Source of the DNA: a virus
Taxonomy: Duplodnaviria > Heunggongvirae > Uroviricota > Caudoviricetes
Strand: one strand, 5' to 3'
Length of the DNA: 64,000 nt
Virus record (IMG/VR): IMGVR_UViG_2903405734_000002
Span: 64,001-128,000 of that record
Numbering within the stretch: position 1 is the stretch's first letter; the number at the start of each line of letters is the position of its first letter. The notes beneath the pieces were generated by a model, which did not search any database, was not told where the DNA came from, and saw nothing but the letters and a program-made list of their open reading frames with translations. Positions 9,550 through 37,423 of this stretch are shown piece after piece. Made by a program: the position numbers and the translations under genes.

Positions 9550-10428
9550 TTAGCTTGAACTACTTCCAGCTATGCCAGAGCTGTAACCAGAGGCTCCTAA
9601 GACCCCGTTTGTCACTCCTGCGCTACCTATAGGAGCAGCCCCTTGGCTGTTCTGGAACGCTTGCTTCATCGCTGCTGTGACCTCAACAACCCCCATCTCT
9701 GCACTAGATGCCAGATTTGATAGATATCGCTCCAGTGATGATGGGATTGTAAACTCCTCAGTGTACTCAGAACCAAGAATGGATTTGCCTGCAAACACCT
9801 GAGTTCCGGCCAGCTTAAGTGCATCAAGTGATGTCGTAGTGCAGTTGTTACCCGTCAGATCGTACCTGTCGATCACCCTCCCCTCAACCTTGAATGCATC
9901 TGTTGATGGTTGCTGAGAGCTGGAAAGCCATTTTTTCTGGAAGATGGCTAATGCAAGGCCCTCATCAATATCTGTGATCTTGAAGGCTCTTGCTGACATT
10001 CGGTAGAGCTCATGCTGATAGTAATCTCTGGCCTTCGCGAAGCTGTATTGAATAAGAACGCCATCACCTACTGGTGAGAATGATGTGTCCCCAAAGCGGC
10101 CATAGGTGTAGACATGAATGCTCCACTCCTTGTGGATTGAGACAAACGCATGTCCTGTGCCCTGGGTCTCCGTCCAAAGAAAAACCCCGTTAGTCAAAAG
10201 ATCGCTTGGTTTTTCGCAAACTTTGTCCTCTTCAAGCCAGTAGCCTTTGGCAGCCTCGGAAAGAGTTACAGACCCATGATCATCACCCCTCAGATAAGAA
10301 ATGGGCTCACCTACAGCCAGGGCCTTATCCTGCCACAACCCCAGCCCCCTGCCGTACTGTCTCATCCTCTCAGGTGTCATTGTGCTCGCTCCTTTTGTGT
10401 CCAAAAGGCATCTTGCCACAGGGCGCAA
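9550..10428 (-). CDS. Permuted papain-like (His...Cys) domain protein, toxin-like; N-terminus may be truncated
   Basis: GHAFVS...YDLTGNNCTT His-before-Cys arrangement; Gly/Ser-rich end; visibly GC-richer DNA than its flanks. Confidence 0.55.
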   Translation of the reverse strand: MRPVARCLLDTKGASTMTPERMRQYGRGLGLWQDKALAVGEPISYLRGDDHGSVTLSEAAKGYWLEEDKVCEKPSDLLTNGVFLWTETQGTGHAFVSIHKEWSIHVYTYGRFGDTSFSPVGDGVLIQYSFAKARDYYQHELYRMSARAFKITDIDEGLALAIFQKKWLSSSQQPSTDAFKVEGRVIDRYDLTGNNCTTTSLDALKLAGTQVFAGKSILGSEYTEEFTIPSSLERYLSNLASSAEMGVVEVTAAMKQAFQNSQGAAPIGSAGVTNGVLGASGYSSGIAGSSSS

Positions 10429-10598
10429 GCGAGGCCAAAGAGATAATCTAGCGCAACGACATGTTTTGTCTTGAGTTGAGCCCTACCCTACCCTCTTCCA
10501 AAAATGAAAAACTGACCATGATTGGTCAGTCTTATCTTGTTTTTTAAATTACCAGAGACTTGCGGGAACCTCGTCCTTTATGGCTGGGAGGATGTTAA

Positions 10599-11207
10599 TC
10601 ATCGCTCAATAGATGCATCCTTTGCCTTTAGCTCTTTGCGCTCGTCTCTTTGGCCTTGTTTAATAAGCTCCTGGGAGTGCATATTCATCATTTCTTGAAT
10701 GTCGCCAATCGTCTTGTTAATAAACTGACTCCCGCCAGGTATGGCGTTAGCTTGTTTTATTTCGGTTGTTATCTCTTTTGCTCCCAGTGAAAAAAGCTCT
10801 CCAAGTTCTTTTTTTGTGATGTCGGGTTTTATTTTTTTGATTTCTTCCTCAAGAGAAGAAATTGCCTTGTCTGAAATGCCATATGCCTTGTCTAGAGATC
10901 CTTTGGAAATCACTGACATTGCTCCATTCCATACAAAAGACATTGCAGCTGCGGCCTTCATGCTAAAAGCATATGTAGCAAGCAGCTGGGCAGGCGAAGT
11001 TTGCCCATTAATCAGAGGCATAATTGCAATTGCGGTATTCATTGCGGCAAAAACAGATGCAAAAACAATGGTAGATTGGGCTGCATGTGTTGACATAACT
11101 CTATTTATGTATTTTCTTGCTCCGCTATTAAATTCCTTAACGTCATTTGCGACCGTTTCCTTTACCTGTCCGATAAGCCAGGACTTCTCAATTTTTGTTA
11201 GGCTCAT
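10599..11207 (-). CDS. Family A hydrophobic-hairpin protein (divergent member); tail ...KDASIER
   Basis: V.NDVKEF motif aligns with V..DFKPFS of the paralogues; two Ala-rich hydrophobic segments; similar length. Confidence 0.7.
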   Translation of the reverse strand: MSLTKIEKSWLIGQVKETVANDVKEFNSGARKYINRVMSTHAAQSTIVFASVFAAMNTAIAIMPLINGQTSPAQLLATYAFSMKAAAAMSFVWNGAMSVISKGSLDKAYGISDKAISSLEEEIKKIKPDITKKELGELFSLGAKEITTEIKQANAIPGGSQFINKTIGDIQEMMNMHSQELIKQGQRDERKELKAKDASIER

Positions 11208-11222
11208 AACTCACCTGTTTAA

Positions 11223-11543
11223 TTAATTGTTAAATATAGCAACCAGTGGCCCTTTCATTTTATGAATAACCTCCTCAAAGCGCGTAAGATTATTTATCTC
11301 ATCATCAATCCCTACAATTGCAGATAGGTCATTTTCAGAGTATTTGATTAGGATTGAGCTGATGATTGCATTTGCATTAAAAATAGCGTTCTTAACATCA
11401 TCAAGACTGGCTATTAGCGATTGAATTTCTGTATCTGGATTGCCAGCGTTCTTTTTAATTCCATTGTTAATAATGCTATCAAACTCATCCGTCTTTATTT
11501 TTAGCTCGGTTAAGAACAGAATCACATCTTCTTTCATATACAT
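11223..11543 (-). CDS. Family B acidic ~106-aa helical protein
   Basis: MY..EDV..FLTELK...D......ID(D/E)EI; paralogue of 11602 and 21690. Confidence 0.85.
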   Translation of the reverse strand: MYMKEDVILFLTELKIKTDEFDSIINNGIKKNAGNPDTEIQSLIASLDDVKNAIFNANAIISSILIKYSENDLSAIVGIDDEINNLTRFEEVIHKMKGPLVAIFNN

Positions 11544-11601
11544 AAAGAAATCTCACAAAAAACCCCTTCGCCAAATAGAAGGGGCTATAATTTAAATTAA
11601 A

Positions 11602-11922
11602 TTACCATCCAAAAAGATTTTTCAATGGAGTTCTGGTCTTTTTGAGTGTGCCTGAGTGCTCTTTCAGTAATTCAATCTCTTCATCGATATCCATCATTGC
11701 TGAGGTTCTGGTGTCTGCCATTTTTGCCAAAACAACACCCATTACCGCTTCTGCCTCGATCATGGCTCTGCTGATTGCATCAACATTTTCTTTTACTGAT
11801 TCCAAGCCTGGATCTGTAAGCTTGATGTCTTCTTTGAAGCCCTTGCTGATAATCTCTTCAATGTCTACCATGTCCATTTTCAGCTCAGTGAGAAAATCGA
11901 CCACATCCTGAATTAAATACAT
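11602..11922 (-). CDS. Family B acidic ~106-aa helical protein
   Basis: MYLIQDVVDFLTELK...DP...IDEEI; GAGG RBS. Confidence 0.85.
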   Translation of the reverse strand: MYLIQDVVDFLTELKMDMVDIEEIISKGFKEDIKLTDPGLESVKENVDAISRAMIEAEAVMGVVLAKMADTRTSAMMDIDEEIELLKEHSGTLKKTRTPLKNLFGW

Positions 11923-11956
11923 TTTTGCCTCTCGGTATTTGTTTTTAACTTAATAA

Positions 11957-12610
11957 TTAAATAGAGTAAGATGAGTTCTCTTTTGACTCTCTCTCTTTGA
12001 CCGCCTTTTCAAAACCTTTGTTGATATTTCTTTCAAAGGCGTTGTAAATATCTTTCTGCATCTCTGGAGTTCGACCAAGCGGCGTTTCTTCGAGTTTTTT
12101 CAGTAGACTCTTCTTGCTTTCCTCAAGAGCCTGCTTGAATTCATTAATACTCAGATCCTTGCTAATTCCACCAGCATTCTCAATAAACTTCTCGGTGATG
12201 GACTTACCTTTATTCATGTACCCAATCATTTCAATCTTTTCGGCTATTTTGCTAAAGGCACTAGCAACTGGCGGCAGGACTGCATGAGCAACGAGAAGTG
12301 CAGCAGCAACAGCGCCTCCACCAGCCATTCCCGTTGCCAGCACTGCGGCTCCACCAACAAGAGAAGCCTGCGCGGCCACCAATCCCAATGAAGTTGCAAA
12401 AAACATGGTTCCAAAAGCAGAGCCTTGAATGATATCTTTTCTGCTGACATCAAACTTTATGGCTGATGATATCTCTGAAAAATACCCACTAACCCTACCT
12501 GAAAAAGGCTTCACCTCATCGGAAACGACTTTCTCCAGTTCTTTTGACGCCTTAAAAATCTGCCAGGCCCTAGCATCACTAAAATCTGATATTTTCATTT
12601 TCACGCCCAT
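11957..12610 (-). CDS. Family A hydrophobic-hairpin protein; tail ...ENSSYSI
   Basis: VSDEVKPFSGRVS and LVAH.VLPP.A.A.SKIA motifs. Confidence 0.85.
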   Translation of the reverse strand: MGVKMKISDFSDARAWQIFKASKELEKVVSDEVKPFSGRVSGYFSEISSAIKFDVSRKDIIQGSAFGTMFFATSLGLVAAQASLVGGAAVLATGMAGGGAVAAALLVAHAVLPPVASAFSKIAEKIEMIGYMNKGKSITEKFIENAGGISKDLSINEFKQALEESKKSLLKKLEETPLGRTPEMQKDIYNAFERNINKGFEKAVKERESKENSSYSI

Positions 12611-12781
12611 TGTTATGGTTATTGGCGATTAATTACACTTAATAATTTCTGACATATAAAGTCAAAAACCATCTTATTTTGTCACATATTGATATTATCA
12701 CTCAGAAATAAGAAAAACAATTGCTTGAGCCCCAGAAAACATAAAAATGGAGCCGAAAAGCTCCATTAATTATTTTGTTTA

Positions 12782-13426
12782 TTATCTTGACAATGATGTA
12801 TTGTCATTTTTTCTGTTGATGCTGTTTAATGATGAGTGGTAGGCATTATGAACCTTTTCTTCAAGAACATCTCTGATTTTATCTCTGACACTTGGATTTT
12901 CCGAAAACTCTGATTTCCTTAGTGAGTCAAGTATCTGAGTTCGCCCTTCGCTTGCGATCTGCTTAAGGTGCTCATGATCCCTTCCATCTCCAAGTTTGCT
13001 CATGGCATCAGAGAATTTACTTACCAAAGAGTCATTTTCAGAAAAATATTTTTTTAGCTCAAAATGAGATGCAATCTTGCTAATGGCCTTTGCTATTGGA
13101 GGCAAAGCAAAATGTGCAACCATTAGGGCGGCAGAACCTGTTACCAGGCCCAATGTTTGGTCAAAGCTCATTGCCCCCATACCGCTTACGCCATGATTAA
13201 TCTCCTGGATGTTCTGGTAGACATTGAATGAGACGGTCGATGTTACTGTTGCTAAGGATGCCGCAAACAATGGATATTTATTCTGGATTGTATTGCCAAG
13301 ACTCTCAAAGAATGAGCTTACCTTTCCAGAAAACGGCTTGAAGTCATCAGCGACCAGCTTTTTGATTTCTGCGGAGCGACTGATGATATCTTGATGAATT
13401 GACTCGTTGCTATGTACATTAACCAT
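12782..13426 (-). CDS. Family A hydrophobic-hairpin protein; tail ...DNTSLSR
   Basis: VADDFKPFSGKVSSFF and LMVAHFALPPIAKAISKIA motifs. Confidence 0.9.
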   Translation of the reverse strand: MVNVHSNESIHQDIISRSAEIKKLVADDFKPFSGKVSSFFESLGNTIQNKYPLFAASLATVTSTVSFNVYQNIQEINHGVSGMGAMSFDQTLGLVTGSAALMVAHFALPPIAKAISKIASHFELKKYFSENDSLVSKFSDAMSKLGDGRDHEHLKQIASEGRTQILDSLRKSEFSENPSVRDKIRDVLEEKVHNAYHSSLNSINRKNDNTSLSR

Positions 13427-13449
13427 AAAATAACCCTATTTGATGTTTA

Positions 13450-14109
13450 TTATCTAGACAGAGATGACTCATCTGGCTTTTTATAAATTTTATCGACTGA
13501 TGTTCGATAGGCTTCAAAAACCTTCTCTTCAAGAATATTATTGATTTTCTCTCTCACGCTTGGATCTTCTGCGAGCCTAGAGTTTTTAATTCCCTCTACA
13601 ATTCCATGCCTACCATGCTGTGCGATTAGGTGAAGATCTTCCTTGCTTCTTCCATCACCAATCTTTTCCATCAATCCTACAAATTTATTGGTGGCTGCTT
13701 CATTTTCTGCAAAATACTGCTTTAGCTCAAAATGAGTGGCAATCTTACTGATTGCTTTTGCGATAGGCGGCAAAGCAAAGTGAGCAACCATTAGAGCGCC
13801 TGCTGCACTAACGAGACCAACAGTTTGGTCATAATTGAATATGGAGTCCCCAAGGCCATTGTTCATGGTAATGTTGGGAATTTTGTTATACATCAAATTC
13901 TCTGCTGTTTGGGCTGTACCATAAAGCATGGAGGCGGTTGTAGGAATCAAAACGGCCAACCCTGATGCAAAAATTGCCATTTTGTTTTGTATTGTGTTTC
14001 CGAGCTTTTCAAAAAAAAGGCTTGTTTTTCCTGAGAATGGTTTAAATTCTTCAGTAACCAGTTTTTTGATTTCTTCCGCTCTATCAATTATATCTTGTTG
14101 TGATCTCAT
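13450..14109 (-). CDS. Family A hydrophobic-hairpin protein; tail ...DESSLSR
   Basis: Close tandem paralogue of 12782 (shared LMVAHFALPPIAKAISKIA and EDPSVREKI/ENPSVRDKI). Confidence 0.9.
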   Translation of the reverse strand: MRSQQDIIDRAEEIKKLVTEEFKPFSGKTSLFFEKLGNTIQNKMAIFASGLAVLIPTTASMLYGTAQTAENLMYNKIPNITMNNGLGDSIFNYDQTVGLVSAAGALMVAHFALPPIAKAISKIATHFELKQYFAENEAATNKFVGLMEKIGDGRSKEDLHLIAQHGRHGIVEGIKNSRLAEDPSVREKINNILEEKVFEAYRTSVDKIYKKPDESSLSR

Positions 14110-14242
14110 GACCTACATCCTTTTATTCTTATTGTTATTTAAGAAATTATCATCCCAACCCAATAATAAATCAACATAACAATTAGAAAACATTGAATAT
14201 TTTTAAATAAACACAAAGAAATGCGCCGCGAAACACAAGAAA

Positions 14243-20931: not shown

Positions 20932-20958
20932 AAAAAGGCTGCCTCGGCAGCCTTTTTT
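20932..20958. terminator. Bidirectional intrinsic terminator
   Basis: AAAAAGGCTGCC-TC-GGCAGCCTTTTTT between convergent genes. Confidence 0.8.
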
Positions 20959-21676
20959 ACATTTCCATCTCAACTTCTCTTTCTTTTGAGATAACCCGTC
21001 CTTTGTTCTGATAGACCATTTCCTTGTTAGATTCATACCGGACTTGATCTTTATTGAAAGGTCTATACTCAGAGCAGGCACAGATTCTATTATCATAATG
21101 AGGAGAATCTTCAACCTTTTCATCCAAATGGGAAACTCCAATAGATGCTATCCCGTCATAGCCCAGTGATTTCAACAAAGTTATTACGCGAGCATCATCA
21201 CATAGCCAATAGGTTTCAATGTAGGCCATATCCTGCTCATCCTGATCCATATCATTAAACTCATCCAAATCAGTTTCGCAGCCATCATGATTCCAAACCC
21301 CTTTGCTCATTGTCTCCTCCAGAAAGGACTGCCACTGGATAGTCTCTAGCTTGGAGCCAAAAATTTCTCTAATATCAACATAATCGATATATCGGCTTTC
21401 GTTAATAATAAGCGGTTTTTTCATGGCAATTTCATAGATGCCGACAACACCATATGAATCACCTGTATCGTGCTCATAGTTGTTGGGGCTAACAGCATAA
21501 ACAGAGGCAGTATGAGGAGAACCAGTGAATGTCGGAACGGCTCTATTGAATGTAATAAATGGGTTCTCAAGGTGCTTTTCTATCTCACCTTCTTCTGCAT
21601 GAAAGCCTCTATACATTTTAATTGGTGTAGAGTCTTCATTTCTCATAAGATACTTTTCAAAATCTTCTTTTTTCAT
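20957..21676 (-). CDS. ADP-ribosyltransferase-like protein (ART-PolyVal-like); tail ...REVEMEM
   Basis: MYRG...FT..P..A.VYA...YEI.MKKP...GYDGI...EY..F..DQVR; start placed at ATG 21676. Confidence 0.65.
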   Translation of the reverse strand: MKKEDFEKYLMRNEDSTPIKMYRGFHAEEGEIEKHLENPFITFNRAVPTFTGSPHTASVYAVSPNNYEHDTGDSYGVVGIYEIAMKKPLIINESRYIDYVDIREIFGSKLETIQWQSFLEETMSKGVWNHDGCETDLDEFNDMDQDEQDMAYIETYWLCDDARVITLLKSLGYDGIASIGVSHLDEKVEDSPHYDNRICACSEYRPFNKDQVRYESNKEMVYQNKGRVISKEREVEMEM

Positions 21677-21689
21677 AGTTGTGACCTTT

Positions 21690-22007
21690 TTAAATATAAA
21701 GAGGCTCAAGATTGATCTTTACACTCTGGATCATTTTTGAAAATTCTTCGACAATCTGAACTTCATCATCAACATTATCCAGGGTAGCTCCCTTGCACTG
21801 GGATACTTTTGCCATAAGCACACCAATAACAGCCTGAACATCAGTAATCGACTCTTTTATGTCCCTTACATAGGTCAAGATAGATTTCATGTCTGGATCT
21901 TCTAAATCGATCTCTGGAATAAATTGCTTTTTCATTGTGTTATCCAAAGAAACAATATCCATTTGGACGCCAACAACAAAATCAACGACATCTTTCTTTA
22001 AAAACAT
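21690..22007 (-). CDS. Family B acidic ~105-aa helical protein
   Basis: MFLKKDVVDF...EDPD...VDDEV aligns with 11223 and 11602. Confidence 0.85.
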   Translation of the reverse strand: MFLKKDVVDFVVGVQMDIVSLDNTMKKQFIPEIDLEDPDMKSILTYVRDIKESITDVQAVIGVLMAKVSQCKGATLDNVDDEVQIVEEFSKMIQSVKINLEPLYI

Positions 22008-22019
22008 GTATTCCCTCTT

Positions 22020-22667
22020 TTACCTTGAAAAGGATTGTTCAGTGGACTGGTGCTTTTTGATGAAGTTCTCCCTAGCTTCCAGAAGCTTACTAGCAGAGCG
22101 ATCCATCATGAGTCCCAGCCTTATTGCAGAGCCAGAATCAAGCTTCTTTGATTCATCAAAATCTATGGCTAATTTAAATTTCTCAATAATCGCATCCCTT
22201 GCTGCACCAAGAACAACACGTTGTTCAACAGGAGGAAGATCAGGATTAATTGATTTTATTGCATCAGCAAATCGAGCTGAAATACCACTATCTCTATCCA
22301 GATAGTGTTTTATTGTTTCTTTTTGGTAGTGACTAGCAACAGATGAGGCAACAACCGGAAGGATAAATCTTGCAGCAACTAAAGATACCGCAACAGCGGC
22401 CATGGATGCGACATCATTAAAAGATACAGATGGTGATGCACCATTCAGTATTTCGCTCCCGCCGTATGCAGCCATACTTCCTGATGATATTGTAGCCAAA
22501 ACAGCAGCGCCAATGAATGTAATATCACCATTTTCAGATCGAATTAACTCATCAGTTTTTTTGAAAAACGACATTACCTTTTCAGACATTGGCTTGAAGT
22601 CCTTTGACACAGCCTCTTCTATGTTCTTGATATTGCTTAATATTTCTTCTTTTAATAATTTGGTCAT
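22020..22667 (-). CDS. Family A hydrophobic-hairpin protein; tail ...TEQSFSR
   Basis: VSKDFKPMSEKVMSFF and LVAARFILPVVA motifs. Confidence 0.85.
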   Translation of the reverse strand: MTKLLKEEILSNIKNIEEAVSKDFKPMSEKVMSFFKKTDELIRSENGDITFIGAAVLATISSGSMAAYGGSEILNGASPSVSFNDVASMAAVAVSLVAARFILPVVASSVASHYQKETIKHYLDRDSGISARFADAIKSINPDLPPVEQRVVLGAARDAIIEKFKLAIDFDESKKLDSGSAIRLGLMMDRSASKLLEARENFIKKHQSTEQSFSR

Positions 22668-22781
22668 CGGCCTATCCTGATGTTGCTTTTATTTAAAAGA
22701 CTGTTATTACACAGTCTTTTAGCAACTTATTATTGTTATAACTTATTCTAACTCACAGGTAGTTACTTATCAAATAAATAA

Positions 22782-23384
22782 CTACATATCATTATCAGAG
22801 GAATAATGATTTCTGACTTTTACTTTTTTTGCGAACGCCAGCTCAACGGCTGGCTGATTATGGTTGATAAAAATCTTGTTGAATCCCATCTTCGCTCTAT
22901 CTAATGCGGCGACACCATTATCACTTAGCTTTCCATCTTTCTGCATCATTCTCTTCTTGTAATCACCGAGAACTAGAATTCTGCTGTAATCATGAATGTG
23001 ATTAAAGTCATTTGATGAAGATGTGGATTTGATTTTATCTATCTCTTTATGAAAAGCCTCAACGAGATCGTCTGGTGATGACTCGTAGCTTTTTACAGAT
23101 AGTCCTTGAAGGGCCGATTTTATAGCGCTTTTCCCTGCTCCGAGCAAAATCCCGCAAACAACGCTTCCGTAAATGATAGAATCAAGCCTGGCATTGCCTG
23201 TTCCACCTAGCGATGCTGTTGCGGCGACAATAGCAGCAAGAGTAGTTTCAGCCTTTTTAGATGCTCTGTTTTCAAGAGAATCAAAAAAAGAACTAACCTT
23301 AACTGAAAAAGGACGGGTTTGGTTATCCACATTCGCCCTAACTTCATCGATTTTTCTAACAACTTCTTCTCTTGATAGTGTCAT
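22782..23384 (-). CDS. Family A hydrophobic-hairpin protein (divergent)
   Basis: V..QTRPFSVKVSSFF..L and two Ala/Gly-rich hydrophobic segments. Confidence 0.8.
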   Translation of the reverse strand: MTLSREEVVRKIDEVRANVDNQTRPFSVKVSSFFDSLENRASKKAETTLAAIVAATASLGGTGNARLDSIIYGSVVCGILLGAGKSAIKSALQGLSVKSYESSPDDLVEAFHKEIDKIKSTSSSNDFNHIHDYSRILVLGDYKKRMMQKDGKLSDNGVAALDRAKMGFNKIFINHNQPAVELAFAKKVKVRNHYSSDNDM

Positions 23385-33564: not shown

Positions 33565-34941
33565 ATGAAAAAAGAGGTCTGGATTCCAACATCAAGGTTG
33601 AAGGCATACGAAAAATCATTCATGTCAATCGCCAAGAAAGCGGCCAAAATTGGCGCTGACATCCCCACTCTTCTCATTACCGATGAGAGGAAAACCTTTA
33701 AAATACCATGCGAACATCAAATTTATGAGTCAAATGCACCAAAATTCAGTCATATGCTTCTTGAGAAAACCAGGTGTGTTTTTGAAGGCGAGATGCCAGT
33801 TATAGATGGATGGAAGCCAATCGCCAAGCTAGATCATGAATATCTACCAAAAGAAAGCTCATTTGCAAATATTGTCAATCTTATTGGAATGGATCTTGAT
33901 GAAAAAGAGACTAGGTTTGTCGCAGATAAGCTTAATGAGCTTTCCTCTTGCGCTCCAAACTGCGAACATTGCAAGCAAAACAGAGTTCGGAATCAAACGT
34001 TTTTGCTAATGAATAATGAAACAAAGGAAACCATCCAGGTTGGTTCTACTTGTGTAGACGACTTCCTTGGAGAAAAATCATTGGCAGAGATTGCTAATGC
34101 ATTCGATATCAACTCATGGATTACAAAAGATTTTGATGCGGAATATAGAGATGATTATTCTAGCGGTAGATCTCACTCTTACTCTGTTCCTCTTGATTTG
34201 TTTGTTGCGATTGCGGACAAAATAACTCGCACAAATGGCTTTGTGTCAGTATCTGCTGCATCACCAACAAATCCATCGACTGCCTTTCGCATAAAAACAG
34301 AGTTGCTAAATCCAAGCGGTGAATTCAAAGGATTGATAAATGATTACATTAACGAAAATGAAACAGATGAGCTCAAAAGAGCGAAAAAAATCTGTGAGTG
34401 GATGTCTCAACAAAAACCAGACAACTCATTTATTATAAGCTGCATAAGCATATCTAAAAAAGGATTTGTTGAGATATCTGATAGGTTTCAGGTCGGAGTT
34501 GTTGCATCCTGGCCTAATAGCATGCTTAGAGATGAAGAAAAAAGACTAAAAAAAGAAATGGAGGCGGCATCAAATAAAAATGAATATTTCGGAGAGGAAA
34601 AACAGAGAGGAGAACTAAAACTTTCTCTTCATCATATATATTCCGATTATGATGCTATGTATCCCTACATAAGACTAACAATGAGAGATCAGGATGGCAG
34701 AAAATTCCAATGGAAAACAAACCCAGGCTCCTGCCCAGAAGTTGAGGTTGGAAAAACCTACACAATGATAGGAACAATAAAGGGGCATGAAGAATACAAT
34801 GGGGAAAAAATAACCCAGCTGGCGAGGTGCTCTTCTATTGAAGAATGTGATGCTAACTCACCAGTGCCTCAATTTATAAAAGATAAAAAAGCAGTAAAAA
34901 AACCAAGAGCAAAAGAAGAAGATCTATCACCATCGCTTTAG
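33565..34941 (+). CDS. Zn-finger (CEHC...GSTC) and OB-fold-like protein; tail ...EDLSPSL
   Basis: CEHCK.NR.R..T......IQVGSTC..DFLG; C-terminal GTIK.H.EY.G.K.TQL.R; GAGGTG RBS. Confidence 0.75.
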   Translation: MKKEVWIPTSRLKAYEKSFMSIAKKAAKIGADIPTLLITDERKTFKIPCEHQIYESNAPKFSHMLLEKTRCVFEGEMPVIDGWKPIAKLDHEYLPKESSFANIVNLIGMDLDEKETRFVADKLNELSSCAPNCEHCKQNRVRNQTFLLMNNETKETIQVGSTCVDDFLGEKSLAEIANAFDINSWITKDFDAEYRDDYSSGRSHSYSVPLDLFVAIADKITRTNGFVSVSAASPTNPSTAFRIKTELLNPSGEFKGLINDYINENETDELKRAKKICEWMSQQKPDNSFIISCISISKKGFVEISDRFQVGVVASWPNSMLRDEEKRLKKEMEAASNKNEYFGEEKQRGELKLSLHHIYSDYDAMYPYIRLTMRDQDGRKFQWKTNPGSCPEVEVGKTYTMIGTIKGHEEYNGEKITQLARCSSIEECDANSPVPQFIKDKKAVKKPRAKEEDLSPSL

Positions 34942-35985: not shown

Positions 35986-36810
35986 GTGATTGACAAAGTA
36001 ATTTTTGGAAACCTTTCCGCCTCGTCAAGTTTTGAGTATGCAAAAAAATTAGAGTTTTTTAATAAGAATGAACAGGTAGAGTTTAAGCCAGGGCTAAATA
36101 TAATCTTTGCGCCAAATGGCAGTGGAAAATCAACTATTCTGTCAATGATTGCAAAAGCAACAGCATCTGAACAAGGCGGAGTGTCTTCAATTACATCGAC
36201 ATGGTTGAATGACCTTGAACTTCATAGAGATCAGCCCGCGCTTGGTGACATAGATGTGCATCATGATGGTCAGCCAACCATCTATGTTAACTCAAGAAAA
36301 GCGGTCGGTCTTTTTGGTGGAATGGCTGCATTTGATGATGACTTTTTTAGTGAGGGAGTGGCAGAAATCAGGCTTAGAGAGTCTGCTGGTTACACGACCA
36401 TGCATAGACTAAGTAATGTAATGAACATCTTGATTGGAAAGACAGAGATTCCAGACGCCTACCAAATAAAAACCCATAGAGAAATCGAGGAAGAAGTTAA
36501 AAAAATCATAGCTCCAAAAATACCAAAATCTCAAAAAACAATCATTCTTGACGAGCCAGAATCCGGCCTGGCAATTCATGTTCAGTCAAACATTTGGAAC
36601 CTGATCGACAAGGCGGCTAAAGAGAGAAATCTTCAAATAATTGCAGCAACTCACTCTCCGTTTTCGCTTGTTTGCGATGCGCATTTTATAGAACTGAGTG
36701 ATGGTTACAAATCAATAGCTCAATCAGAAATTAGTATTTTGTATGCAAGAATGGAGCTAACAAAAAAGATCAACGAAATGACAAGAAAAAAAGAAGGAAA
36801 AGATGGATAA
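35986..36810 (+). CDS. ABC-type (AAA_21-like) ATPase
   Basis: APNGSGKST Walker A; ILDEPESGL Walker B; ATHSP H-loop; GTG start with AGGAG RBS. Confidence 0.85.
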   Translation: MIDKVIFGNLSASSSFEYAKKLEFFNKNEQVEFKPGLNIIFAPNGSGKSTILSMIAKATASEQGGVSSITSTWLNDLELHRDQPALGDIDVHHDGQPTIYVNSRKAVGLFGGMAAFDDDFFSEGVAEIRLRESAGYTTMHRLSNVMNILIGKTEIPDAYQIKTHREIEEEVKKIIAPKIPKSQKTIILDEPESGLAIHVQSNIWNLIDKAAKERNLQIIAATHSPFSLVCDAHFIELSDGYKSIAQSEISILYARMELTKKINEMTRKKEGKDG

Positions 36811-37423
36811 AGAAAGAGAGAAGTTATCCTTGGTTCTAGATCTTGATGAAACTCTTTTTTACTCAACAGAAAAGCGGAGTGAACTATCAGATCAGCCTCA
36901 TGATTTTGAAATTTATGATGAATACACGAGATTTAGGGTCTTTAAGCGACAGGGCTTAGATGATTTTCTTGAGCGGATATTTAATAATGAAAAACTAAGT
37001 ATTGGTATATGGACTTCTGCAAACAAGTCATATGCTGATGGAATGGTGTCTTCTTTATTTTTCGATAAAAAACTGTCTTTTGTTTTTGACTCTAGCCGCC
37101 TGGTAAGGCAAAAAATGCCTATCATGAGCATGTATGGCCTTGAAGGTTATGAGCTAAAAAAGGATCTTCAAAAGGTAATAAGGCATACGGGAGCAAGTAT
37201 AGAAAGGATTGTTGCTATTGATGACAAGCCATCATTTTACACAAGAAATTATGGTAATTTAATCACAGTTCCTGGCTTTTACGGTGATAAAAGCAAGCCA
37301 GACAACACTCTTGAATTGCTTGCTGACTATATTGAGCGACTAGAAAGAGTAGATAATGTAAGAAAGGTGGAAAAAAGAGGGTGGATAAACAATCAAAAAA
37401 AGGATGTTGCTCCAACAATATGA
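36803..37423 (+). CDS. HAD phosphatase, FCP1/NIF-like; tail ...KDVAPTI
   Basis: LVLDLDETL, R.GL..FL, IWTSA...YA, KDL.K, IDDKP; overlaps the ATPase stop. Confidence 0.85.
   Translation: MDKEREKLSLVLDLDETLFYSTEKRSELSDQPHDFEIYDEYTRFRVFKRQGLDDFLERIFNNEKLSIGIWTSANKSYADGMVSSLFFDKKLSFVFDSSRLVRQKMPIMSMYGLEGYELKKDLQKVIRHTGASIERIVAIDDKPSFYTRNYGNLITVPGFYGDKSKPDNTLELLADYIERLERVDNVRKVEKRGWINNQKKDVAPTI

Follow-up and report, generated by a model that had tools for sequence, protein, structure and literature searches.

Two new protein families, here called A and B, are encoded side by side on what we treat as a giant mobile element, and we tentatively read them, at somewhat short of an even chance, as transmembrane substrates of a type IVB secretion system and their dedicated chaperones. 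The window analyzed is a 64,000-nucleotide (nt) stretch, bases 64001-128000 of the 215-kb record IMGVR_UViG_2903405734_000002, which is linear, incomplete and classed as a virus by IMG/VR. The element on this record was designated G000. On the minus strand, at positions 10599-14109 of the window, six open reading frames (ORFs) form cassette 1, in which the two paralogous families follow one another in the order A-A-A-B-B-A, exactly where the initial annotation, made from the letters alone, had placed them. A second cassette with the same families (21690-23384, minus strand, order A-A-B) was found by a search within the element. The cargo-chaperone reading is favored because of the combination of a C-terminal signal shared with unrelated proteins, a moderately hydrophobic hairpin in A, an acidic partner that is free of the tail, and a DotM/DotL-like pair on the same element. 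The genes of both cassettes are listed below, with lengths in amino acids (aa); the ratio of nonsynonymous to synonymous divergence is given as dN/dS, AF2 stands for AlphaFold2, and L006 and L017 are related elements, L006 being a close relative.

13450-14109, minus strand: A1, family A, predicted hairpin protein; 219 aa; C-terminus SSLSR; hmmsearch with the A profile, E 2e-75; covered by RNA-library contigs
12782-13426, minus strand: A2, family A protein; 214 aa; C-terminus TSLSR; homologues P0001-P0006; dN/dS 0.06 against the L006 orthologue
11957-12610, minus strand: A3, family A protein; 217 aa; C-terminus SSYSI; AF2 model
11602-11922, minus strand: B1, acidic family B protein, 34 nt downstream of A3; 106 aa; AF2 model; joined to A3 by an RNA-library contig
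11223-11543, minus strand: B2, acidic family B protein, 15 nt upstream of A4; 106 aa; 50% identity to the L017 B gene beside A4-type genes
10599-11207, minus strand: A4, divergent family A protein; 202 aa; C-terminus ASIER; L017 orthologue with 34% identity, E 4e-29
22782-23384, minus strand: A6, family A, cassette 2; 200 aa; no tail (C-terminus SDNDM); A profile, E 2e-54
22020-22667, minus strand: A5, family A, cassette 2; 215 aa; C-terminus QSFSR; A profile, E 4e-61
21690-22007, minus strand: B3, acidic family B, cassette 2, 12 nt downstream of A5; 105 aa; B profile, E 2e-41

The tail of family A is formed by the last three residues: a hydrophobic residue or proline, then serine or threonine, then arginine, leucine, isoleucine or methionine. 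A members with 12-30% identity end in SLSR, SYSI, SFSR, SLSL, SLSM, SPSM, SISR, GLSR and EPSR, and the third-last residue is L, Y, F, P or I in 15/17 aligned members, as well as in the L017 orthologue of A4. When the likely genes of the element were examined, 17 of 208 were found to end in [LMVIFYP][ST][RMLI], compared to about 2 expected, whether estimated from the composition of the tails or from how often the tripeptide occurs internally (~8-fold, Poisson 1e-10). Four of these 17 carriers belong to family A. The 13 that are unrelated to A include a PBECR5 nuclease (G000 130514-132160), a NIF-type phosphatase, and proteins of 458 aa and 519 aa; examples of carriers inside the window lie at 33565-34941 and 36803-37423, both on the plus strand. 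None of the element's housekeeping-like proteins has the tail. The initial annotation had already pointed out the tail, and this count bears it out. Type IVB signals have been described as carrying a hydrophobic residue among their last three positions (PMC12981334), and most family A members have such a residue at the C-terminus; an E-block is not evident. We read the tail as a putative recognition signal.

The 519-aa protein (G000:C1:201118-202677, outside the window) ends in SSLSR, identical to the end of A1. Its homologues on other contigs often end alike (ELSM, ALTR, SMSR, SVSI, SPSL, AMSR). This family comprises 27 clusters, some of them on contigs of 0.4-1.3 Mb, and one member is named 'DNA primase' by UniRef, a name without Pfam or PDB support.

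The proteins of family B are of a different kind. They are acidic (isoelectric point (pI) 4.35-4.53, compared to 6.9-9.2, neutral to basic, for family A), and they end in LFGW, IFNN or PLYI and therefore lack the tail. The AF2 model of B1 is a confident antiparallel bundle of three long helices, with a predicted local distance difference test (pLDDT) score of 89. The initial annotation's description of B as acidic, helical and tail-free is thus upheld. Fold searches with the B model returned generic bundles only (best Foldseek E 0.64 against the PDB, VIA-align Z ≤10.6), the top matches being designed bundles and unrelated regions of coiled coil or helical bundle.

Each A member has two hydrophobic segments rich in Ala, Gly, Ser and Thr, with a loop of 4-33 aa between them. 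The segments were scored with a Hessa-type hydrophobicity scale, a crude one that was calibrated inside the element. On this scale, the A segments scored +1 to +6.7, compared to 0.5 or lower for the element's evident membrane proteins and a median of 8 for soluble proteins, in agreement with the claim that they are only moderately hydrophobic. The density of lysine plus arginine in family A is 0.17 in the N-terminal flank, 0.04 in the loop and 0.15 in the C-terminal flank. Since the loop is poor in these residues and the flanks are rich in them, a hairpin with both termini inside (N-in/C-in) is predicted. The AF2 model of A3 is all-alpha (pLDDT 62), with low confidence in the hydrophobic center, residues 51-109. 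When these residues were left out, the N-terminal helix and the three C-terminal helices aligned to four-helix bundles (VIA-align, Z 9.3). Based on these models, family A is predicted to be a four-helix bundle into which a moderately hydrophobic N-in/C-in hairpin is inserted. Foldseek against the PDB, a wide VIA-align search and an Atlas shape search found only generic helical bundles. Pore-formers gave no Pfam match (E up to 1) and were not among the top folds, but the fold test for them is weak because the pLDDT of the A hairpin is below 50.

The presence of B beside A is not limited to this element. Using hidden Markov models built here, we found B directly beside A in six lineages: the window together with L006, L011, L014, L017, L040 and L042. 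The B genes of L040 and L042, which were outside the training alignment, were detected at E 1e-21 to 2e-34. The intergenic gaps between A and B are 8-35 nt, and either gene may come first. The initial annotation had staked its proposal on A and B co-occurring in other genomes, and their adjacency does recur in these divergent lineages. An A4-type gene lies beside both B2 and its 50% identical counterpart in L017. Similarly, the B gene of L011 shares 48% identity with one of the L014 B genes, and their neighbors, P0012 and P0013, share 49%. Judged from these comparisons, B subtypes track the subtypes of the adjacent A genes and are co-inherited with them.

Within the element, BLASTP linked A1 to A2 (52% identity, E 6e-76), A2 to A3 (E 7e-21) and B1 to B2 (31% identity, E 4e-15). 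The initial annotation had described four A paralogues in cassette 1. BLASTP supports this for A1, A2 and A3, whereas A4 was not detected by BLAST and could be joined to the family only by profiles and intermediates. A comparison of A4 with family A by hhalign gave 62% and E 8e-5, and the A profile picks up the intermediates P0018 (E 3e-9) and P0019 (E 2e-7); P0018 adjoins the A4 orthologue in L017. The N-terminal motif V..(D/E)(F/V)KPFS..VS.FF and the shared Ala-rich motif, LMVAHFALPPIAKAISKIA in A1 and A2 and LLVAHAVLPPVASAFSKIA in A3, were both confirmed in the alignment.

Families A and B are both new. Neither had been recognized by the first reading of the sequence, and this held true in library searches, PDB sequence searches and PDB fold searches. 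A, B and their distant members gave nothing above chance in Pfam, PHROGs, NCBIfam and PADLOC; for family B, there were only sub-threshold chance matches in Pfam (E up to 1) and none in NCBIfam. PDB sequence profile searches found no match for A or B, tblastn and megablast found none in phage and plasmid collections, and a pattern scan of 185,579 species genomes and IMG/VR found no relative. A language-model search of the Atlas gave scores of 0.75-0.79, too low for a usable lead. Six relatives of A and two of B, all of them close, came out of a word-indexed search of 5.8 billion proteins. An exhaustive profile search of 1.8 billion representative proteins returned 13 proteins, of which 11 are 198-273 aa long and have the same architecture as family A. 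The other two, P0016 and P0020, are long kinase proteins with five to six copies of the A module. All A homologues with sufficient flanking DNA are located in relatives of this element (~220 kb), where their neighbors include NrtR, vWA-PP2C-kinase, TK and Dam.

The module repeated in P0016 and P0020 is a helix-loop-helix of ~50 residues (residues ~113-170 of A, KFE.A...I.P..S.EE.E...), and is an undescribed helical repeat. Both proteins have eukaryotic-type Ser/Thr kinase domains. P0016 (L039:953-3802) lies on a short metagenome contig from the Joint Genome Institute (JGI).

The genes of the cassette were compared with those of L006. The dN/dS was 0.06-0.17 wherever the synonymous divergence (dS) was informative, and by this measure the cassette genes are under purifying selection. 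The module had been called diversifying in the initial annotation; in the sense of positive selection, these ratios do not bear this out. The dS itself varies widely along the cassette: it is 1.2-1.4 for A1-A3, 0.63 for B1, 0.17 for B2 and 0.03 for A4, compared to 0.08-0.5 for the neighboring backbone genes. Because of the difference between A1-A3 and the backbone, A1-A3 appear to be old, deeply diverged alleles that have been exchanged. The mosaic divergence between the window and L006 points to allele exchange inside cassette 1.

The locus was present in runs of 14 studies, from freshwater, wastewater, aquaculture, biofilm and food. All six genes are covered by contigs from four metatranscriptome libraries of two studies, and these contigs run across the A1/A2, A3/B1 and B1/B2 junctions. 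Two of the RNA-library contigs stop at 10536, which is the position of a terminator-like hairpin after A4. X292, an ORF downstream of the cassette, and the spacer between A1 and nrtR were left uncovered by contigs from the four libraries; since the sampled strains may differ, no conclusion is drawn from this gap. RNA libraries can contain DNA, so the contig cover is moderate evidence only, and to that degree it suggests that the A and B genes are real and in use.

The IMG/VR label of the record as a virus is unconfirmed, since no terminase, HK97 capsid or sheath families were found on it. There were also no PHROG structural matches on the record, except for one tail-fiber-like C-terminal domain. 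The record does have a set of replication and repair genes: DnaE, GyrA/B, LigA, Mfd, two UvrD, RecD2, RecJ, RNR and a topoisomerase. A DotM homologue (DotM_C, E 7e-39) adjoins an 830-aa coupling-protein-like ATPase (G000:C1:162539-167793, outside the window), and this DotL-like protein matches TraG-D_C and TrwB_AAD_bind. Given this gene content, we regard the record as plasmid-like, a giant mobile element that has a coupling complex of the IncI/Dot-Icm type. Literature searches found no description of the element. A ParM-like actin gene lies beside the DotM/DotL-like pair.

If A is membrane-insertable cargo and B its dedicated cytoplasmic partner, the module could work as follows. The tail would most likely be read by the element's own type IVB coupling complex, made up of the DotL-like ATPase and DotM. 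This complex would hand tail-bearing proteins to a secretion or conjugation channel of the Dot/Icm or IncI type, through which they would reach a target cell, whose membrane the A hairpin would enter. B itself would remain behind in the donor and bind the conserved N-terminal region of its cognate A, the hairpin, or both. B would thus keep A soluble, harmless and ready for export, acting as chaperone and antidote in one. The binding of A by B, the secretion, the target cell and the membrane effect are all proposals. In type III and type IVB systems, transmembrane effectors are described as having intermediate hydrophobicity, a C-in topology with a cytoplasm-facing C-terminal signal, periplasmic loops of <30 aa and chaperone dependence (PMC6110835; PMC11602083; PMC12981334). 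By prediction, family A has the C-in topology and the short periplasmic loops (<~30 aa) described for type IVB (PMC11602083), given its loops of 4-33 aa.

The initial annotation had named colicin pore domains, type III translocators, VirE1 and IcmS/W as analogues. The resemblance to these is functional only; no sequence or fold link was found. Among the closest known systems are the transmembrane effectors of Legionella Dot/Icm, such as SidF, which have a two-segment hairpin, a short outer loop and a cytoplasm-facing C-terminus (PMC11602083, PMC12981334). Dot/Icm effectors need the small acidic cytoplasmic helpers IcmS-IcmW, a need for such helpers is predicted here, and DotM and a DotL-like protein are on the same element. 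However, A and B have no sequence or fold relation to known effectors or to IcmS/IcmW. The tail here is a sharp tripeptide with no clear E-block, in contrast to the Dot/Icm signal, which is a fuzzy pattern of 20-30 residues. While IcmS/IcmW is a general adaptor, the helper here is encoded beside each cargo type. The carrier also differs, since it is a mobile element without channel genes found on its record and not an intracellular pathogen.

Membrane proteins of type III systems and their chaperones (SseF-SscB, and SipB/IpaB with class II chaperones) share the moderately hydrophobic segments (PMC6110835). As in type III cargo, the conserved region just N-terminal of the segments could be a chaperone-binding domain (PMC6110835), and the product of an adjoining gene for a small acidic chaperone would shield the hydrophobic part. 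On the other hand, type III signals are N-terminal, whereas the conserved signal here is C-terminal, and the element offers no type III context. The class II chaperones belong to the TPR proteins, unlike B with its bundle of three long helices.

Another pair that resembles A and B is IcmQ-IcmR of Legionella, in which a membrane-active protein of ~200 aa has an adjacent, variable, acidic helical partner of ~110 aa in a type IVB context. IcmQ is not known to have a hydrophobic hairpin, and in this it differs from family A. PDB sequence profile searches (E up to 10) gave no match to IcmQ or IcmR, and fold searches gave none either. The chlamydial Inc proteins are an expanded, fast-diverging family with a bilobed hydrophobic hairpin, both termini on one side and helical cytoplasmic domains. 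Family A is similar in all these respects, but it is not known to be related in sequence to the Inc proteins, which an obligate intracellular bacterium secretes by a type III system.

The effector-chaperone module proposed in the initial annotation therefore has circumstantial support from the conserved tail, its ~8-fold enrichment and the DotM/DotL-like pair, and is set back by the lack of type IV channel and ATPase genes found on the record. Several observations weigh against reading A and B as cargo and chaperone. VirB4/CagE, TrbI/DotG, T2SSE/DotB, T4SS-DNA_transf, DotI and DotH were not found on the incomplete 215-kb record, where the last two of these searches were run without a positive control. 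There are six A genes and three B genes, and no B adjoins A1, A2 or A6. A6 and P0017 have no tail. The region upstream of the tail is Lys-rich and not Glu-rich, so there is no classic E-block. B has no sequence or fold likeness to known secretion chaperones in Pfam, NCBIfam, Foldseek or VIA-align searches, which still leaves room for a chaperone-like function. Contigs from RNA libraries do not prove single transcripts, and such libraries can hold DNA. The presence of ClpP on the element, discussed below, also belongs on this side.

Another possible explanation is that the A proteins reside in the carrier's own inner membrane, as exclusion proteins, anchors, scaffolds or sensors with a cytoplasmic bundle, and that B is a regulator or assembly partner, with no export involved. 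IncI-type plasmids encode ExcA, an inner-membrane exclusion protein of ~220 aa, which is a precedent for this. The predicted hairpin obeys the positive-inside rule, no secretion channel genes were found on the record, and purifying selection and RNA-library cover suit any functional gene. However, the tripeptide on unrelated soluble enzymes, such as the nuclease and the phosphatase, would be left unexplained. In hydrophobicity, the A segments fall short of those in the evident membrane proteins of the element, and six paralogues, with a small acidic partner for each type, would be unusual for exclusion proteins. We regard residence in the membrane as unlikely, though it is the alternative to be taken most seriously. 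An intracellular toxin-antitoxin or abortive-infection pair is a good deal less probable. In such a pair, A would depolarize the carrier's membrane and B would neutralize it by binding, which would stabilize the element or stop phage. Tight operons with a small acidic protein gene beside a membrane-active-looking protein, co-inherited cognate pairs and deeply diverged alleles would all be expected from it. Yet PADLOC and Pfam gave no match to defense or toxin-antitoxin families beyond a chance-level one of A4 to PbeC (E 0.004, 13.8 bits), and the strongly purifying selection gives no hint of an arms race. The excess of A genes, with the unpaired A1, A2 and A6, also speaks against it, and the tail common to 13 unrelated proteins would have no role.

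The tail could also be a degradation tag that keeps the tagged proteins short-lived, read by the element's ClpP together with a host unfoldase, with B either protecting A or handing it over. C-terminal tags are a well-established route to ClpXP. This idea stays alive because a full-length ClpP (E 7e-88) is encoded on the element, in a stretch that also has genes for a prepilin peptidase A24, DHFR and an Mrr-type nuclease (G000:C1:147542-153444, outside the window), and an SspB-like adaptor is encoded on a related element. Neither a ClpX-type AAA_2 domain nor SspB was found on the record itself, though, and known ClpX C-terminal tags have a non-polar end, such as LAA, and not Ser-Arg. The neighboring DotM/DotL-like pair offers an alternative reader, of a type known to act on C-terminal signals (PMC12981334). 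We give the degradation tag only a small chance of being right.

Returning to the cargo-chaperone reading, we also considered a bolder form of it. In this form, a plasmid-borne DotL/DotM complex of conjugative type would serve at least 14 tail-marked substrates. Family A, the largest among them, would be a new class of effectors that insert into the membrane of a prey or recipient cell, and every type would be escorted by a three-helix chaperone of its own, from a new fold family. We hold this doubtful. An effector arsenal with membrane-inserting members would then exist outside Legionellales, carried by a giant mobile element. If the cargo-chaperone reading as such is right, giant mobile elements of aquatic bacteria would deliver proteins as well as DNA to other cells. 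In Legionella and Coxiella, type IVB signals are diffuse and difficult to predict, and how the donor membrane is shielded from hydrophobic cargo is an open question (PMC11602083, PMC12981334). Under the cargo-chaperone reading, the element would provide a compact and tractable case, with a short, sharp tag on ~8% of its proteins, two-segment cargo and adjoining chaperones, so that signal recognition by DotL/DotM and the shielding of transmembrane segments by chaperones could be tested directly. Should that reading prove wrong, A and B would still make up a conserved and expressed module of two genes, confined to one lineage of ~220-kb elements, which is widespread in freshwater, wastewater, aquaculture and food metagenomes.

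Candidate transcription signals around and within cassette 1 are listed here in the direction of the genes.

14146-14174, minus strand: promoter-like -35/-10 pair upstream of A1; consensus scan only
12746-12767, minus strand: terminator-like hairpin 3' of A2; consensus scan only
11561-11586, minus strand: terminator-like hairpin in the B1/B2 interval, ending 17 nt before the B2 start; consensus scan; spanned by an RNA-library contig
10508-10533, minus strand: terminator-like hairpin closing cassette 1; consensus scan; the two RNA-library contigs that stop at 10536 are from one study

The hairpin at 11561-11586 is probably a leaky terminator or a stabilizer.

Two neighboring ORFs were considered as further members of the module and rejected, since the genes downstream of the cassettes vary by lineage. 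X292 (window 9550-10428, minus strand), downstream of cassette 1, encodes 292 aa with a Gly/Ser-rich tail and no family match. As it is absent from L006, it is a variable cargo gene. Y250 (window 20957-21709, minus strand) follows B3 immediately, with an overlap at the end of B3, and encodes a very acidic protein of 250 aa (probably 239 aa) with no match in Pfam, PHROGs, NCBIfam or PADLOC. Y250 has 92% identity in L006, and a 243-aa gene, possibly a homologue, is at the equivalent place in L042. Elsewhere on the element (G000:C1:156721-160793, outside the window), a full SecA, with four SecA Pfam domains (E down to 2e-110), is followed by a 428-aa protein without a family match. It is unusual for a mobile element to encode its own SecA.

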